Assembly: GCA_964016885.1 (NCBI GenBank)
Contig: OZ024746.1
Span: 92,690,001-92,754,000 of the forward strand
Direction of reading: 5' to 3'
DNA length: 64,000 nucleotides
Source of the DNA: Eledone cirrhosa
Taxonomy: Eukaryota
The notes under the pieces are model-generated. The model had not been told where the DNA came from. It did not search any database and was given only the letters and a program-made list of their open reading frames with translations. A program made the translations under genes and the position numbers. This document shows positions 13,511-46,978 of this stretch, piece after piece (position 1 is the stretch's first letter; each line of letters begins with the position of its first letter).

Positions 13511-16500
13511 AGATCACACTACACAACACTACACAACACCACACCATACCACACCACACCACACCACACCAGATCACACCACATCACACCACACCATACT
13601 ACACCACACCACACAACACCACACCACACCGTACCACACAACACCACACCACACAACACCACACCACACCGTACCACACAACACCACACCACAACACCAC
13701 ACCATACCACACCACACCACACCACACCAGATCACACCACATCACACCACACCATACTACACCACACCACACAACACCACACCACACCGTACCACACAAC
13801 ACCACACCACAACACCACACCATACCACACCACACCACACCAGACCAGATCACACCACATCACACCACACCATACTACACCACACCACACAACACCACAC
13901 CACACCGTACCACACAACACCACACCACAACACCACACTATACCACACCACACCACACCACACCAGATCACACCACATCACACCACACCATACTACACCA
14001 CACCACACAACACCACACCACACCGTACCACACAACACCACACCACAACACCACACAACACCACACCACATCGTACCATACAACACCACACCACACCACA
14101 ACACCACACCATACCACACCACACCACACAACACCACACTACACCACACCTTACATCACACCACACCACACCACACTACACCACACCTTACACCACACCA
14201 CACAACACCACACTACACCACACAACACCACACAACACCACACCACACCACACAACACCACACCACACCACTCTACACCACACTACACCACACCTTACAC
14301 CACACCACACTACACCACACTACACCACACCACACTACACCATACCACACCACACAACACCACACCACACCACACAACACCACACCACACCACACCACAC
14401 CACACTACACCACACTACACCACACTACACCACACCTTACACCACACCACACCACACCACACCACACCTTACACCACACCACACTACACCACACTACACC
14501 ACACCACACTACACCATACCACACCACACAACACCACACCACACCACACAACACCACACCACACTACACCACACTACACCACACCTTACACCACACCACA
14601 CTACACCATACCACACCACACTACACCACACTACACTATACCACACCACACCACACTACACCACACAAGACGACACCACACCTCACTACACCACACCACA
14701 CAACACCACACCACACCACACCTCACTACACCACACTACACCACACCACACAACACCACACCACACCACACAACACCACACCACACTACACCACACTACA
14801 CCACACCTTACACCACACCACACTACACCACACTACACCATACCACACCACACAACACCACACCACACAACACCACATCACATCACACCACACCACACCA
14901 CACCACACTACACCACACCACACAACACTACACCACACCACACCACACTACACCACACCACACGACACCACACTACACCCTACCACACCATACCACACCA
15001 CACCACACAACACTACGCCACACTACACCACAGCACACCACACTACACCACACTACACCACACCACATTACACCACACCACACTACACCACACTACACCA
15101 CACCACAGCACACCACACTACACCACACTACACCACACCACATTACACAACACCACACCACACCACACAACACCACACCACACCACACCACACCACACTA
15201 CACCACACTACACCACACCTTACACCACACCACACTACACCACACCACACTACACCATACCACACCACACAACACCACACCACACCACACAACACCACAC
15301 CACACAACACCACACCACACCACACCACACCACACCACACCTTACACCACACCACACTACTCCACACTACACCACACCACACTACACTACACCATACCAC
15401 ACCACACCACACCACACCACACCACACAACACCACACCACACCACACTACACCACACTACACCACACCTTACACCACACCACACTACACCATACCACACC
15501 ACACAACACCACACCACACCACACAACACCACACCACACTACACCACACTACACCACACCTTACACCACACCACACTACACCATACCACACCACACTACA
15601 CCACACTACACTATACCACACCACACCACACTACACCACACAAGACGACACCACACCTCACTACACCACACCACACAACACCACACCACACCACACCTCA
15701 CTACACCACACTACACCACACCACACAACACCACACCACACCACACAACACCACACCACACTACACCACACTACACCACACCTTACACCACACCACACTA
15801 CACCACACTACACCATACCACACCACACAACACCACACCACACAACACCACATCACATCACACCACACCACACCACACCACACTACACCACACCACACAA
15901 CACTACACCACACCACACCACACTACACCACACCACACGACACCACACTACACCCTACCACACCATACCACACCACACCACACAACACTACGCCACACTA
16001 CACCACAGCACACCACACTACACCACACTACACCACACCACATTACACCACACCACACTACACCACACTACACCACACCACAGCACACCACACTACACCA
16101 CACTACACCACACCACATTACACAACACCACACCACACCACACAACACCACACCACACCACACAACACCACACCACACAACACCACACCACACCACACCA
16201 CACCACACCTTACACCACACCACACTACTCCACACTACACCACACCACACTACACTACACCATACCACACCACACCACACCACACCACACCACACAACAC
16301 CACACCACACCACACTACACCACACTACACCACACCTTACACCACACCACACTACACCATACCACACCACACTACACCACACTACACTATACCACACCAC
16401 ACCACACTACACCACACTACACCACACCACACCACACAACACCACACAAGACCACACCGCACCTCACTACACCACACCACACAACACCACACCACACCTC

Positions 16501-17018
16501 ACTACACCACACTACACCACACCACACAACACCACACCACACCACACCACACAACACCACACCACACCACACAACACCACACTACACCACACTACACCAC
16601 ACCTTACACCACACCACACTACACCACACTACACCATACCACACCACACAACACCACACCACACAACACCACACTACACCACACCACACCACACCACACT
16701 ACACCACACCACACAACACTACACCACACCACACCACACAACACCACACCACACCACACTACACCACACTACACAAACACACATCACATACTACTCCCAC
16801 ACACACACACCACACAACACATTCACACACACTACACACAACACATTCACACACACACTACACACACACAACACATTCACATACACACACACTACATACA
16901 CTACACACACTACACACACTCACACAACACATTCACACACACACCAGACACACAACCCACACACCACACACCACACATAACTCACACACTATACACACAC
17001 ACACTACACACTCACACA
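13511..17018. repeat. 3.5-kb (CACAC)n pentamer satellite with higher-order repeats
   Basis: CACAC/TACAC/CATAC/AACAC variants; 118-bp and 975-bp internal periodicities. Confidence 0.97.
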
Positions 17019-21809: not shown

Positions 21810-21997
21810 ACATCAGGAAAGAAATTCATGTGAGTGGTCGGAGTATAAACTTGGCCCTCTCAGAGCGAGGCCTGTCAGCATTGAATGAGGTGGGACTGAG
21901 AGACAGGGTACGACCTTTTGGTATCCCGATGTATTCACGTATGATACACAATAGGGATGGCACCAAAAAGAGGATACCTTATGGCAGAGAAAATCAG
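21810..21997 (+). CDS. KMO: KMO exon 3 (DIRKEIHVSGRSINLALSERG...IPMYSRMIH...PYGRENQ)
   Basis: KMO signature GRSINLALSxRG; tttcAG / GTAAGT; 188 nt. Confidence 0.97.
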
Positions 21998-23195
21998 GTA
22001 AGTTGACTGCTAATAGGGATGGTGATGGTGGTACAGGGTAAATCAGTGGGTGGGATCTTGGGTATGTCCATGGATAAGATAGAAGGTAAAATAGTGAGTA
22101 AATTGTGTGTAAAATCGTGGATTGTGAGGGAAATTACAGATTGTATGTAAAATGGTAGGTGAGATTATGGGTAAAATGGTTGGTAGAAGGATGGGCAAAA
22201 TAGCGAATTGTGGTTAAAACAGTTTTGTAAAATTGCTGGATTAGATGGTAGATGTTGGGTTGAATAAAATAGAGGGTAAAAAGTGTATGATAGGTAAAAC
22301 AGGGTGTAAACTAATGGAGTATGGATTATTTAGAAGGAACATATCAGTGTGTGTATTTGGTGAACATTTCAATCTACTTGTTTACGTGGTTATTTGAGGT
22401 TTTGAGTTTATTCATAGAAGAGGATTATGATGACAAATGTTAATGATAGAGATAATAATGACGACATTGATAAATATGATATTGATGTTGTTGGGGAGGA
22501 GGAGGAGGAGGAGGGAAGTATGAGGAGGGGGGGGGGGGTAATGATAAGCTGGGGGTATAGTGAGGAGGATGAAGATGAGGTGGAAAATAGTGAGGATCAT
22601 GATGATGATGGTGAGGATTATGAAAGCTATTGACAATATTTTATCATTTTTTGTTAAGCTACTTAAAGAATTATATGACTAAAAGAAGGGGACAAAACAT
22701 CACCATCTTTGCCATCACTACCATCACTCTCATCAGAGTTAGATTTGTGTTGAATGTAAGTAAATATTTATGTAGAATATAGTTTATATGTGTGTATATA
22801 TATATATGTGTGTATATATATATATATATACGTGTGTATATATATATATATATATAAATGACAATCAAAGAGTGTTTAAAACATTTATTCACTTACGATT
22901 GCTTCATTCTAGCATTTCTATTTCGGCTCTGTAGTATACTTGTTATTTTACATTGAGCTATTTTCATACTTTTAATGGGTAATATTTACTATTACCCACA
23001 TTATGTATATATTTATATGTAGCTACAATTATATATATATATCAGCCCCCACCCCCCTCCCCCCACTCTCAAAAGCGTGAACCTAATAAATTACCATTTG
23101 TACTGCCTCTCTGTTTTTTGTTCCTGTCTAATATTTAACTATATCATCATCATCATCATCACCTTCGTTTAACGTCCATTTTCCATGCTAGCATG

Positions 23196-23249
<54 letters not shown>

Positions 23250-23250
<1 letters not shown>

Positions 23251-23692
23251 AAGGTATATATTGAGTTAGGAACTCAAAATAGTCTCTTACAACAAAATAG
23301 CTCTAAGAAAGCGATATTTCCGAGCCGTATATTATAATAGAATATAAAAGAAAAATGAACAGAGGTTCAAATAGTAAGGGACCGGATTCGCTAAGGTGAA
23401 GAGAATACTAACTATAGATAATTGGGTTTGCTTGTCTCAATTTAAGAAAAAATTAAGAAAATAAATACAAACCGGAATTGTGGTAACTACCAATCACCCA
23501 GACAACTTCTTGTTGTTTCGCAATGTTAATAGAATTACCAATTCAAGCTCATCAGTGGGTGATGAATTAGTATCCTAGACACTTCTAAGTATATTAAGAA
23601 ACTGAATAGTGTGCCACATATACTAGTGCACATGGTATCTTAGCGTGTCTCACAAACTTACGCCACTAAAAATAGCAGCCAGGTTTACTCGA
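23250..23692 (-). mobile_element. Non-coding HHR-bearing element between (TA)n tracts, same family as 39133-39700
   Basis: 23258-23340 is complementary to 39620-39700; gctattttagtggc and tagaagtg blocks shared. Confidence 0.75.
23493..23563 (-). ncRNA. Type I hammerhead ribozyme, canonical core
   Basis: Minus strand: ATCACCCA-CTGATGA-GC…GC-GAAACAAC-aagaa-GTTGTC-TGGGTGAT; 8-bp stem I, 5-bp stem III, GUC triplet. Confidence 0.9.
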
Positions 23693-23696
23693 CATA

Positions 23697-23728
<32 letters not shown>

Positions 23729-24396
23729 GGAGGAGGTTATAGTTCACTTGAAGCATTGTGTAATGAGGTATAAACGTTTGAATATGTATAATAAAGCCAA
23801 AACAATGCAGGTATGGACATAGAAAAAAGAATGCAATTGCAGAAGATATTGTTGACAAATCGTCTTTTACCTTAGATTTATTTAAATGTCCTTAATTTTC
23901 GAGATAATATCTCTTCTTCAGAGGGAAATAAAGGTCTCAAACCAGCGTTCTAAATATCTTGCCAAGCCATGCTGACAGGAAATAGTATAGAGTATCTGTT
24001 CTATCTCTAATGTCAAAGAGTTAAAATTAGGTGGATAAAGAGTAGTCTCCCTTTAAAAGGGGTTTGTTTAGGGTTTTATTTTATATACATGCCTGTTTAA
24101 GTGTGTGGGAGAATGCATGAAGGTGTAAGTATGTGGGTGTGTGTGTGTGAGTGTGAGAAGATAAGTATATTCGTAAATGTGGGGGATAGGTGTTATCTGG
24201 TGTTAGAACTGGTTTTGTGTGTGTATGTGTGAGAGAGAATAAGTGGAGGTGTAAGCGTGTGTGTGTGTGCGTGTGTGTGGGGGGGGGGGTAAATATGGGG
24301 CTAGAAGCCCTATCAGGTTATAAATTGGGTGTTGAGTTCTAGTCTATTATTGATTTGTGGTTGTGTTTTATCTATAATTAGTGCTTCCTTAATTCT

Positions 24397-24609
24397 AAGA
24401 TAAGAATAAAGGAACACCTCAATACTAACGCTTCCTCATTTAAGAAACACCTAGTTAAATGCAAAAACACCAACAAAACCATAACAGTTAGGATAGAAAC
24501 TAAGGAAAGAAACCTCGGCAATCTTAGAATTAAGGAAGCACTAATTATAGATAAAACACAAACACCAATCAATAATAGACTAGAACTCAACACCCAATTT
24601 ATAACCTGA
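24397..24609 (+). pseudogene. C-terminal half of a Penelope GIY-YIG endonuclease (KIRIKEHLNTNASSFKKHL…LRIKEALIIDKTQTPINNRLELNTQFIT*)
   Basis: Hand translation; R..EH, H, L..KEAL.I and P.N motifs; no ATG, so absent from the ORF track. Confidence 0.85.
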
Positions 24610-24989
24610 TAGGGCTTCTAGCCCCGTATTTACCCCCCCCACACACACACACACACGCTTACACCTCCACTTATTCTCTCTCACACATACACACACAAAA
24701 CCAGTTGTAACACCAGATAACACCTATCCCCCACATTTACGAATAGACTTATCTTCTCACACTCACACACACACACTCACATACTTACACCTTCATGCAT
24801 TCTCCCACACACTTAAACAGGCATGTATATAAAAAAAAAAACCTAAACAAACCCCTTTTAAAGGGAGACTACTCTTTATCCACCTAATTTTAACTCTTTG
24901 ACATTAGAGATAGAACAGATACTCTATACTATTTCCTGTCAGCATGGCTTGGCAAGATATTTAGAAGGCTGGTTTGAGACCTTTATTTC

Positions 24990-25024
24990 CCTCTGAAGAA
25001 GAGATATTATCTCGAAAATTAAAG
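24990..25024 (+). ncRNA. Minimal HHR-like motif in the pLTR (antisense twin at 23890-23924)
   Basis: CCT-CTGAAGA-A-GAGAT/ATCTC-GAAAATTA-A(G/A)G; stem I is fully paired only in the left-arm copy. Confidence 0.6.
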
Positions 25025-25138
25025 ACATTTAAATAAATCTAAGGTAAAAGACGAATTGTCAACAATATCTTCTGCAATTGCATTCTTTTTTCTATGTCCA
25101 TACCTGCATTGTTTTGGCTTTATTATACATATTCAAAC

Positions 25139-25201
<63 letters not shown>

Positions 25202-25353
25202 CTGGTGTAGAAAATGGACGTTGAACGATGAGGATGATGATAATATATGTGTAATGCTAGTGTGGAAAATGGACGTTAAACGAAGATGATGATGATGATG
25301 ATGATGATATATATCAATGGAATATTCAATCTTCATTCCTGTATCTATTTCAG

Positions 25354-25402
25354 TTTATTATGTCCATTGACAGAAGAAAGCTAAATGAGTTACTTCTAAC
25401 AG
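25354..25402 (+). CDS. KMO: KMO exon 4 (FIMSIDRRKLNELLLT)
   Basis: tttcAG / GTAGAT; SIDRxxLN motif; 49 nt, phase consistent. Confidence 0.93.
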
Positions 25403-25490
25403 GTAGATATTCACATCTTTCTTGCTTTCCTCTGTCTTTTCTATTATCCTTTTTATAACCACATTTTAAAAGAAAAACTACTGCCACTAA

Positions 25491-25531
<41 letters not shown>

Positions 25532-25559
25532 AATTCATATTTCTTTGTGGTGACATGAT

Positions 25560-26230
25560 AAAACCTTTCCATCTCACATGTTCCAACATTAACTGCTTCA
25601 GTTCTTCATTGGATAATTCTGTATCTTCCTCAATGACAATTTTTAATGTCTTGAGAGATCTTCACATTTGTGTTTCACATAAGTGGGCTCCCATAGTAAA
25701 AGTTTTGTAACAGGTTCAATGCCTTTCATGACATGTATACAAACCAATCAAGTTTACATTCATTAAGAAAACTTTGTAGGTAGATCCCATTTCTGTTACT
25801 GGTCTAATGTAGGGAGTAACAATTGACAATATGAGCATTGAAATTTCTACATTCTAGCATGAAGTGATGCTGAGGAACTGTTGAGATGTGTTCATATAAT
25901 TCATCATAAAATTGCAGTATTCATCCTCACTGTACCCAATATGAGGAGAGTAACATGGTATGATAGTAGTTTTAGTGTTGCTTTTAAAGGTTGCTGTCAC
26001 TATGTGGTCATGTATCTTTTGAACTGATATCAAGAAGTTGAGTAGGTCAGTTTTTATAACAATCCCAACACCACCGATTGTTGAATTATTCAATATTTTC
26101 CAAGCAGAGGCTGTGAACAATGTGTAGGAGACAACATCTTGTGTTATTATATCAGAATCTTTCTCTTTGTGTAAATATGTTGTTTTTTTTTAATTGTAAG
26201 TACGTTATAATCATCAAGGTGTTTGTCTAA
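25560..26230 (-). mobile_element. Decayed LINE AP-endonuclease fragment
   Basis: ORF 25854-26120: SAWK..NNSTIGGVGI…TTIIPCYSP. Confidence 0.7.
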
Positions 26231-45320: not shown

Positions 45321-45367
<47 letters not shown>

Positions 45368-45375
<8 letters not shown>

Positions 45376-45824
45376 AGAACAAAAGATGGTTAAAAGAGTT
45401 CCATGTATTTTATTATGCGCATTTCAAAAACAAATATCATCATGTAATAATATTTGTGTTTTCATCAGATAAAATAGGAAGACATGATATGAAGGTTAAA
45501 AAACACTTGTGGATAGTGCAGTTTTAAATCAACTGCACTATCATGGTAAGACTGGGGTTCCTGTCATTAAAACACCCAAGAAGCCATCTATAAGGTGTAA
45601 CCTTGTGGTGTCAGTTGTAAAATCCGTTTTTTTTTTATTACTTTTGCTTCATTCATCTCATCACCCATATTGTGTCTATCCACAAGTGTTTTTTAACCTT
45701 CATATCATGTCTTCCTATTTTATCTGATGAAAACACAAATATTATTACATGATGATATTTGTTTTTGAAATGCGCATAATAAAATACATGGAACTCTTTT
45801 AACCCCCTTTTGTTCTTATATATT
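45368..45824. mobile_element. Fold-back Penelope-like relic with near-identical ~147-bp inverted arms, each carrying an HHR
   Basis: 45368-45515 is the reverse complement of 45676-45824; abuts (TA)n. Confidence 0.88.
45716..45786 (+). ncRNA. Minimal hammerhead ribozyme (antisense twin at 45406-45476)
   Basis: TATTTTAT-CTGATGA-AAAcACAAATATTATTA/TGATGATATTTGTtTTT-GAAAT-GCGC-ATA-ATAAAATA; stem III palindrome ATGCGCAT. Confidence 0.88.
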
Positions 45825-45909
45825 ATGTATACTCCAGTCCTACAAACTGTAGAGTGCTTCTTATCCGATATCTGCATTGCTTTATTGTACTACAATAAAA
45901 CTCACCTCC

Positions 45910-45950
<41 letters not shown>

Positions 45951-46623
45951 GCAGAGTGAGAGAGAAATGCATAAACACATGTACACACTTCTCAATACAA
46001 AAACAGTCATACACTTGCATACTGATGCATGTGTAGGCACATGTACATACACATGCACAGAAATACACACACATGCATGTGCATGCACATACAATTATGC
46101 ATAAACCATATACAGACATGTATGCATACATATCTATACACATGTGTAGATATAGATGCACATGCACACATGGCATAAATATATGCACACAAACTCCCAC
46201 ACTACCATCATCATCATCCTACTTTTACATCCATTTTCCCACATATAATATCATCGTTTTTATGTCCATTTTTCCATGCTTGCATGGGTTGAATAGGTCC
46301 TTCACAGCACGGCATCTCTCCGCTTGTTGCGTTCCTTCATCATCTCCTCTGCCAATCTTAGTGATTTGAGGTCCGCTTTCACAACCTCTGCCCAGGTCTA
46401 TCTTGGTCGTCCTCTATTGCAACTTCCTTCCACTGGGATTTCCCGGCATTTCTTCATCCATCAGTCATTGTCCATGTCCATCGTATAATAAAAATGTATG
46501 CACTACAAACCTTATTAGATTTGAGATACATTTAATATAGATACAACTACATCAACAACAATGATGATAATGATTAAGATGAGTTTCTTTATGCTAACAT
46601 GGAAGATAGACGTTAAATGATGG

Positions 46624-46660
<37 letters not shown>

Positions 46661-46838
46661 GAAGAAGGAGCTACGAAATTTGCAGCTACTCTGATGAAAT
46701 TGAAGTTTTTGATATTCAGTTTAAATTGTTCCAGGGTAACCTCCAGAGGAAAAATATGTACAGAGAGAGTATTTCAGAGGGACAATGTCCATAAGAGAAA
46801 GAACTGAGTGTAGGGTTAGTGCAGGACCTTGGGTGGTT

Positions 46839-46978
46839 GATAGACACAATATGGGTGATGAGATGAATGAAGCAAAAGTAATTTTAAAAAAACGGATTTT
46901 ACAACTGACACCACAAGGTTACATCTTATAGATGGCTTCTTGGGTGTTTTAATGACAGGAACCCCAGTCTTACCATGA
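46839..46978 (-). repeat. Inverted copy of 45541-45680 (the spacer of the fold-back element)
   Basis: ~140 bp near-identical reverse complement. Confidence 0.88.

Follow-up and report, generated by a model that had tools for sequence, protein, structure and literature searches.

A head-to-head Penelope-like element insertion in intron 3 of the Eledone cirrhosa KMO gene and the single-tail pattern of its family

Insertions of Penelope-like elements (PLEs) that consist of inverted copies with an additional short tail have already been described (accessible passages of PMC8557442 and PMC3846280), and the origin of the inverted ends and of the tail is treated as an open question in the available parts of PMC8557442 and PMC11167929. 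A PLE studied in vitro cleaves both strands of its target and extends them, using two reverse transcriptase (RT) start sites that bound the tail, and the available portion of that work reports no strand difference (PMC11167929). Neither tail counts per insertion nor a twin-priming model for PLEs were found in the open-access passages of the PLE literature that were searched. As for the minimal hammerhead ribozymes (HHRs) of metazoans, the accessible text of PMC4209133 states that cleavage by a single such HHR was undetectable in vitro and that HHR pairs on opposite strands, 100 to 700 bp apart, are known in Schistosoma.

The insertion described here is located in a 64,000-nucleotide stretch of DNA from Eledone cirrhosa (the window; contig OZ024746.1, positions 92,690,001 to 92,754,000). 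It is ∼1.4 kb long, consists of two PLE copies placed back to back, and occupies intron 3 of the KMO gene, which is encoded on the plus strand. KMO belongs to the kynurenine pathway and has a role in the synthesis of ommochrome pigments. The features of the locus are as follows.

21810..21997, plus strand: KMO coding exon 3, recognized by motif scans and a KMO structure match and also matched by an RNA contig
23694..23728: left-hand (TA)n microsatellite of the target
23729..23768, minus strand: PLE tail of 40 nt, confined to the left arm, with the element ATG (23756-23754) and the first codons
23769..24401, minus strand: left arm, the inverted, 5'-truncated 3' end of the PLE
23890..23924, minus strand: predicted minimal type I hammerhead of the left arm, antisense to KMO and with the stem I of the family majority; the predicted cut follows 23893
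24400..24401: junction microhomology of 2 nt, self-complementary, where two 5'-truncated copies meet head to head
24400..24609, plus strand: PLE open reading frame (ORF) end, the last 69 codons and the stop, corresponding to the C-terminal half of GIY-YIG, with neither a start codon nor the catalytic N-terminal motifs
24402..24520, plus strand: spacer, or hairpin loop, 119 nt of element sequence found in the right-hand copy only
24521..25145, plus strand: right arm, the sense PLE 3' end, tailless, running into (TA)n
24990..25024, plus strand: predicted minimal hammerhead of the right arm, sense to KMO, with A instead of the majority G at 25023
25142..25198: right-hand (TA)n microsatellite of the target
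25354..25402, plus strand: KMO coding exon 4, 49 nt, recognized by motif scans and an RNA contig

Further KMO coding exons were recognized by motif scans near 5.3 kb, near 17.05 kb, and downstream of exon 4, and solved KMO structures match two of the exons (best E values of 4.6e-13 and 1.7e-25). The right arm ends 208 nt before exon 4, in agreement with the distance of ∼210 nt given in an earlier note on this DNA. With its length of 49 nt, exon 4 could not be skipped without a frame shift. The same gene carries a 3.5-kb (CACAC)n-like array of ∼688 units in intron 1 (13515-16976), with an extreme strand skew, which ends ∼70 nt before exon 2. In intron 4, there is a 111-codon frame on the minus strand (25854-26189) that, judged by eye, resembles a remnant of a LINE endonuclease. 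Near the 3' end of KMO, near-perfect inverted repeats were seen at 45361-45831 and 45541-46978 (156 nt at 98% identity and 143 nt at 96.5%).

Assignment of the insertion to the PLEs comes from its sister copies. A genome search returned 2930 first-look candidates, 40 of which were scored, and the matches listed were 91 to 100% identical. The ORF of a sister copy contains the RVT_1 (PF00078, E value of 6.7e-12) and GIY-YIG (PF01541, E value of 2.1e-6) domains, both above the cut-offs, with GIY-YIG at residues 359 to 438 of 451, C-terminal to the RT. The earlier note had proposed a 5'-truncated PLE that carries a second, inverted copy, which the analysis bears out, and had seen the C-terminal end of GIY-YIG in a frame starting at 24397. 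Searched by itself, the 75-aa frame of the window matched 0 Pfam families at E values of ≤10; its identity follows from the sister copies, as the peptide encoded at 24400-24606 is identical to the C terminus of the sister-copy ORF in 67 of 69 positions, and only the part from position 24400 on derives from the PLE. One natural copy, part of a tandem unit of ∼3.1 kb, retains ∼857 codons with a single stop, which indicates recent activity of the family. At two loci (L062 and L067), the pLTR derives from a partial tandem with a unit of ∼3.1 kb, and the tail continues into the ORF.

The family shows the features that define EN+ PLEs: a single ORF that has RT and, at its C terminus, a GIY-YIG domain, the CCHH motif of the endonuclease (found by comparing translations by eye with a published alignment), pLTRs derived from tandem copies, an optional tail of 30 to 40 nt (40 nt here), and a hammerhead in the pLTR. 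On these sequence features, the locus is confirmed as an insertion of a high-copy EN+ PLE. The linker that precedes GIY-YIG reads C-C-x4-C-P-x6-C. The CX2-5CxxC linker of the Nematis/Neptune clade was not found in this family, whose linker is Nematis-like only in length. The Hydra-clade combination of an absent CCHH motif and a CxCX5C linker was not found either, CCHH being present, nor was the N-terminal endonuclease of Naiad and Chlamys, GIY-YIG being placed after the RT.

No other inverted repeat of the 64-kb window comes near the two PLE arms in length or in similarity. Over 624 aligned columns, there are 11 substitutions between them, in addition to three small indels in simple-repeat runs, so that the near-perfect hairpin of ∼630 bp with a 119-bp spacer claimed earlier was found as described. 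Its left boundary has to be moved: the insertion begins not at 23769 but at 23729, the 40-nt tail of the left arm having been overlooked. In tandem copies of the PLE, this tail continues into the ORF. Both ends of the insertion lie within (TA)n, which was overlooked as well and in which a target site duplication would be hard to tell from the microsatellite itself.

Several other repeats are found next to the insertion. The left (TA)n is adjoined by a second, older multicopy repeat on the minus strand (23250-23693), for which there were 3042 first-look candidates and the best other copies are 84 to 91% identical. Copies of this repeat form tandem and inverted arrays that mostly end in (TA)n, and no ORF of their own was seen in them. 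A weak match to the RAGATH-1 hammerhead (24.4 bits, E value of 0.47) falls below the cut-off of that family. At locus L035, a copy of this repeat adjoins an arm related to the main PLE. The repeat may represent a non-autonomous PLE derivative or a retrozyme-like element. In addition, an older 52-nt inverted repeat (94% identity; 23143-23194 and 25254-25305), made of a common repeat, flanks the entire PLE insertion; its predicted pairing extends up to ∼50 nt before the exon 4 acceptor, nearer than the PLE hairpin.

The 29-nt ribozyme core occurs in 846 exact copies in the genome. Among the 81 loci represented by the first 100 of these core matches, all on contig C1, 16 contain head-to-head pairs within 10 kb; among 20 further copies, 7 have an inverted partner end within ∼5 kb. 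Judging from these genomic counts, the head-to-head structure is a routine insertion form of this PLE family and is not peculiar to KMO; extrapolation from the 16 of 81 loci puts the probable number of similar hairpins in the genome above a hundred. Six of the 16 head-to-head pairs of contig C1 (L044, L053, L055, L056, L057, and L058) are near-perfect palindromes of ∼400 bp, both arms of which break off 180 to 216 nt from the pLTR end. They surround a short self-complementary site that is located immediately upstream of the ribozyme. The choice of loci by ribozyme pairs may enrich for such palindromes.

The arms of the KMO insertion are 1.4% apart outside simple repeats, within a range of 0 to 6.2% over 23 loci. 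Their distances from the family majority are 1.6% and 1.9%, compared with 0.8 to 3.6% for 32 other copies, which were picked for high similarity. Sequencing run X5 comes from a related organism (23 differences in 198 intron bases), in which the depth over the arm is mostly 0 to 120 versus ∼6,000 to 280,000 in run X1, with the exception of one (GT)n bin; this low depth indicates that the family expanded after that split. By its sequence divergence, the KMO copy is recent, as implied by its earlier description as young, but it falls in the middle of the family range rather than among the youngest copies, so that its youth is only relative.

The part of the analysis most worth keeping is the distribution of tails. 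Outer ends were typed at 32 two-armed loci, selected blind to tails, with well-preserved copies favored and 16 of the 32 located on a single contig. A tail on one end and none on the other was seen at 29 of the 31 loci in the typing, and the remaining 2 continue into a tandem ORF; the locus left out of that typing proved to be of the same tail/none type in the junction analysis, which brings the numbers to 30 one-tailed and 2 tandem loci of the 32. Neither tail/tail nor none/none pairs were present among these 32 loci. Single ends are split nearly evenly (16 with a tail, 18 tailless, and 1 other), so that, were the two ends independent, the chance of 30 of 30 pairs being one-tailed would be close to 1e-9.

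The arms of the same insertion are also closely related to each other. In their last 150 nt, they differ by 1.2%, versus 3.3% between insertions, and 0 of 10,000 permutations gave a value as low, which points to a common donor lineage of the two arms. In the window, one variant is common to both arms and is found at only three places in the genome, i.e., at one place elsewhere. A genome search for a sister copy with both right-arm variants returned only the window itself, and L040 was rejected as a donor since it shares only one of the variants.

Of 18 simple junctions, counted after exclusion of 7 complex or tandem loci, 9 carry the tail on the longer arm and 5 on the shorter arm, and the arms of the other 4 are equally long. 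In the KMO insertion, the shorter arm bears the tail and the longer arm the spacer, so that neither arm contains the other, as is the case at 5 of the 18 simple junctions. A seemingly single-armed, tailless copy (L016) carries, at its 5' junction with (TA)n (∼948-959 in sense orientation), 11 nt of the tail end as an inverted stub; a recognizable stub was not found in two short copies (L005 and L017).

We consider it probable that the locus represents one head-to-head PLE insertion into the (TA)n tract of KMO intron 3, formed by priming on two strands and carried as a tolerated passenger; taken separately, priming of both target strands is likely as the source of the two arms, and the status of a tolerated passenger is likely as well. 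According to this reading, the GIY-YIG domain would have cut the (TA)n tract, whereupon one strand would have primed cDNA synthesis at the pLTR end and the other strand 40 nt further, at the tail end. Both cDNAs would have been templated by RNA of the same donor lineage, stopped early, and then been joined. From the two start sites seen in vitro and the one-tail rule, we infer that the two strands of a single target use different start sites. In L1 twin priming, two priming events likewise give rise to an inversion, albeit of a different part of the RNA; unlike in L1, both PLE arms copy the same 3' segment.

For the entire family, this reasoning leads to a bolder proposal, to which we would give an even chance, namely, that integration occurs by obligatory asymmetric double priming. 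A dimer would extend both (TA)n strands on RNA of the same donor, starting at the pLTR end for one strand and at the tail end for the other, hence with exactly one tail per two-armed insertion. Seemingly single-armed copies would be those in which one cDNA was aborted early; L016 with its stub would be an example. Given this geometry, a host transcript running in either direction would read the antisense arm first, and the element would seed many intronic duplexes that mute its own ribozyme.

Other explanations of the paired arms carry considerably less weight. The inverted arm could have been produced by self-priming, i.e., fold-back on an antisense template (proposed in the accessible text of PMC3846280), or a second tail could have been removed by the endonuclease during resolution (PMC8557442, in the part available). 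The equal arms (within 3 nt) at 4 of the 18 simple junctions, two of them at short palindromes (L003 and L056), would be expected from self-priming, and variants common to both arms fit the copying of one arm from the other just as well. However, self-complementary ends would also be the preferred joining sites of two cDNAs with equal polarity, and in the window and at 4 other simple junctions, each arm has sequence that is absent from the other; with the tail on the shorter arm and neither arm containing the other, fold-back of a single cDNA cannot yield both. The self-priming or tail-removal route is rather improbable. Far less probable still is a palindrome that arose as an assembly or library artefact or from two independent insertions that happen to abut. 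Among the filtered records listed, neither a read nor a contig spans the inversion junction, which is the observation in favor of an artefact; the unique exon 4 is likewise blank in runs X1 and X2. An empty allele was not seen either, but short-read contigs break at the (TA)n ends of the insertion, and the RAD-seq runs X6 and X7 have zero depth on the unique flanks. In the filtered records of run X1, all depth at position 24411 shows the family letter. Nevertheless, there are 11 substitutions plus the indels between the arms, flanking DNA is not part of them, the one-tail rule followed by 29 other loci holds here as well, and a variant that the two arms have in common recurs at a single further place in the genome. 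The divergence of the arms and the one-tail pattern thus make an artefact unlikely.

The remaining alternative to a mere passenger is an effect of the hairpin on KMO, be it that the RNA is hyper-edited, retained in the nucleus, or processed to small RNAs, or that the 49-nt exon 4 is partly skipped. In the KMO pre-mRNA, the arms would be expected to fold into a duplex of ∼625 bp: the predicted fold of 23100-25403 has a minimum free energy of -1376 kcal/mol with helices of up to 125 bp, next to which the older 52-nt repeat approaches the exon 4 acceptor. Intronic duplexes, such as those formed by inverted Alu pairs, are substrates of ADAR. The main hyper-editing substrates are long near-perfect duplexes, octopus is among the species with the highest levels, and Penelope is heavily edited in a lizard (available passages of PMC5625713); in squid, ubiquitous edits fall into introns and 3' UTRs that overlap repeats (PMC9068888, in the portion accessible). 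By analogy, hyper-editing of the duplex is a reasonable expectation, and ADAR would likely edit it before it left with the intron. Editing within a removed intron is common and need not alter the mRNA, so that it would be a routine event and no sign of function. In contigs pooled over all family copies, there were 18 A>G and 21 T>C places in run X4 and 19 of each in run X1, and the 11 arm differences show no A-to-G excess.

An effect on splicing, suggested by the earlier note, is weakened by run X4, which is taken to be RNA because of its spliced contig. This single contig of 1837 nt contains exon 3 at 260-449 and exon 4 at 446-498, followed by exon 5 sequence. Exons 3, 4, and 5 are joined normally in it; minor isoforms are possible, given that the depth is 7.4, rare isoforms are dropped, and the sample may or may not carry the insertion. 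In the predicted fold, the ∼45 nt before the exon 4 acceptor are largely unpaired, and there are many such hairpins in the genome. An influence of the hairpin on KMO is therefore unlikely, and a measurable effect at this locus would be quite unlikely, and less likely than double priming.

The earlier note had also placed an HHR-like motif in each arm. A hammerhead descriptor that requires a 3-bp stem I fits the left-arm copy; of 2000 dinucleotide shuffles, used as the null, it fits 0. The right-arm copy is present but fails the stem I criterion, as the A at 25023 disrupts the second stem I pair, adjoining the cut site, of the sense hammerhead. In a search of 23000-26000 against Rfam at E values of ≤10, neither arm hammerhead was matched; most of the matches obtained were to miRNA models within (TA)n runs and were dismissed as noise. 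As self-cleaving ribozymes, these hammerheads are predictions from structure. The stem I variant occurs in 2 of 32 other PLE copies. A private variant was ruled out, the contig carrying it having a depth of 199 versus 7.3 for single-copy sequence, and selection against cleavage was dropped as an explanation since other copies carry the variant. The antisense arm, being transcribed first, would trap the sense ribozyme, as the earlier note supposed; in the predicted fold, every part of this ribozyme pairs with the left arm. Its masking probably changes little, given that a single minimal HHR did not cleave detectably in vitro and that the sense copy has the stem I mismatch.

As one of many similar hairpins, the KMO locus itself matters little. 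Should the insertion be polymorphic, it would provide a natural pair of alleles with which to see if a 600-bp intronic duplex changes a frame-critical 49-nt exon. The one-tail pattern, the donor variants, and the non-nested arms constitute a genomic constraint that is testable in the existing in vitro system.

The minimal HHRs of metazoan PLEs in the accessible text of PMC4209133 have the same core, the extra nucleotide after A9, and a short helix I, and a palindromic AAUU replaces helix III in them and in the Eledone PLE alike; unlike them, the sense HHR of the KMO insertion has a stem I mismatch. In the available rows for Nematis and PNL2 (supplementary Fig. S2 of PMC8557442), CCHH and a short Cys-containing linker are likewise found just before GIY, but the Nematis linker is CX2-5CxxC as opposed to C-C-x4-C-P-x6-C in the Eledone PLE, a comparison of motifs that assigns no clade. 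PAc, the Poseidon of Anolis, resembles the Eledone element in that the tail lies between two 3' end points, the targets are AT-rich, and both strands are extended (accessible part of PMC11167929). In PAc, however, the start sites lie 111 to 118 nt into the ORF and the HHR overlaps the start codon, whereas in the Eledone PLE the ATG falls between the two ends, with the HHR ∼125 to 150 nt upstream of the pLTR end. Inverted 5'-truncated copies are common to the Eledone PLE and the canonical C-terminal EN+ PLEs (available passages of PMC8557442 and PMC3846280). The tail, described in those passages as optional or as often present, is strict in the Eledone family, with exactly one in 30 of the 30 typed pairs.
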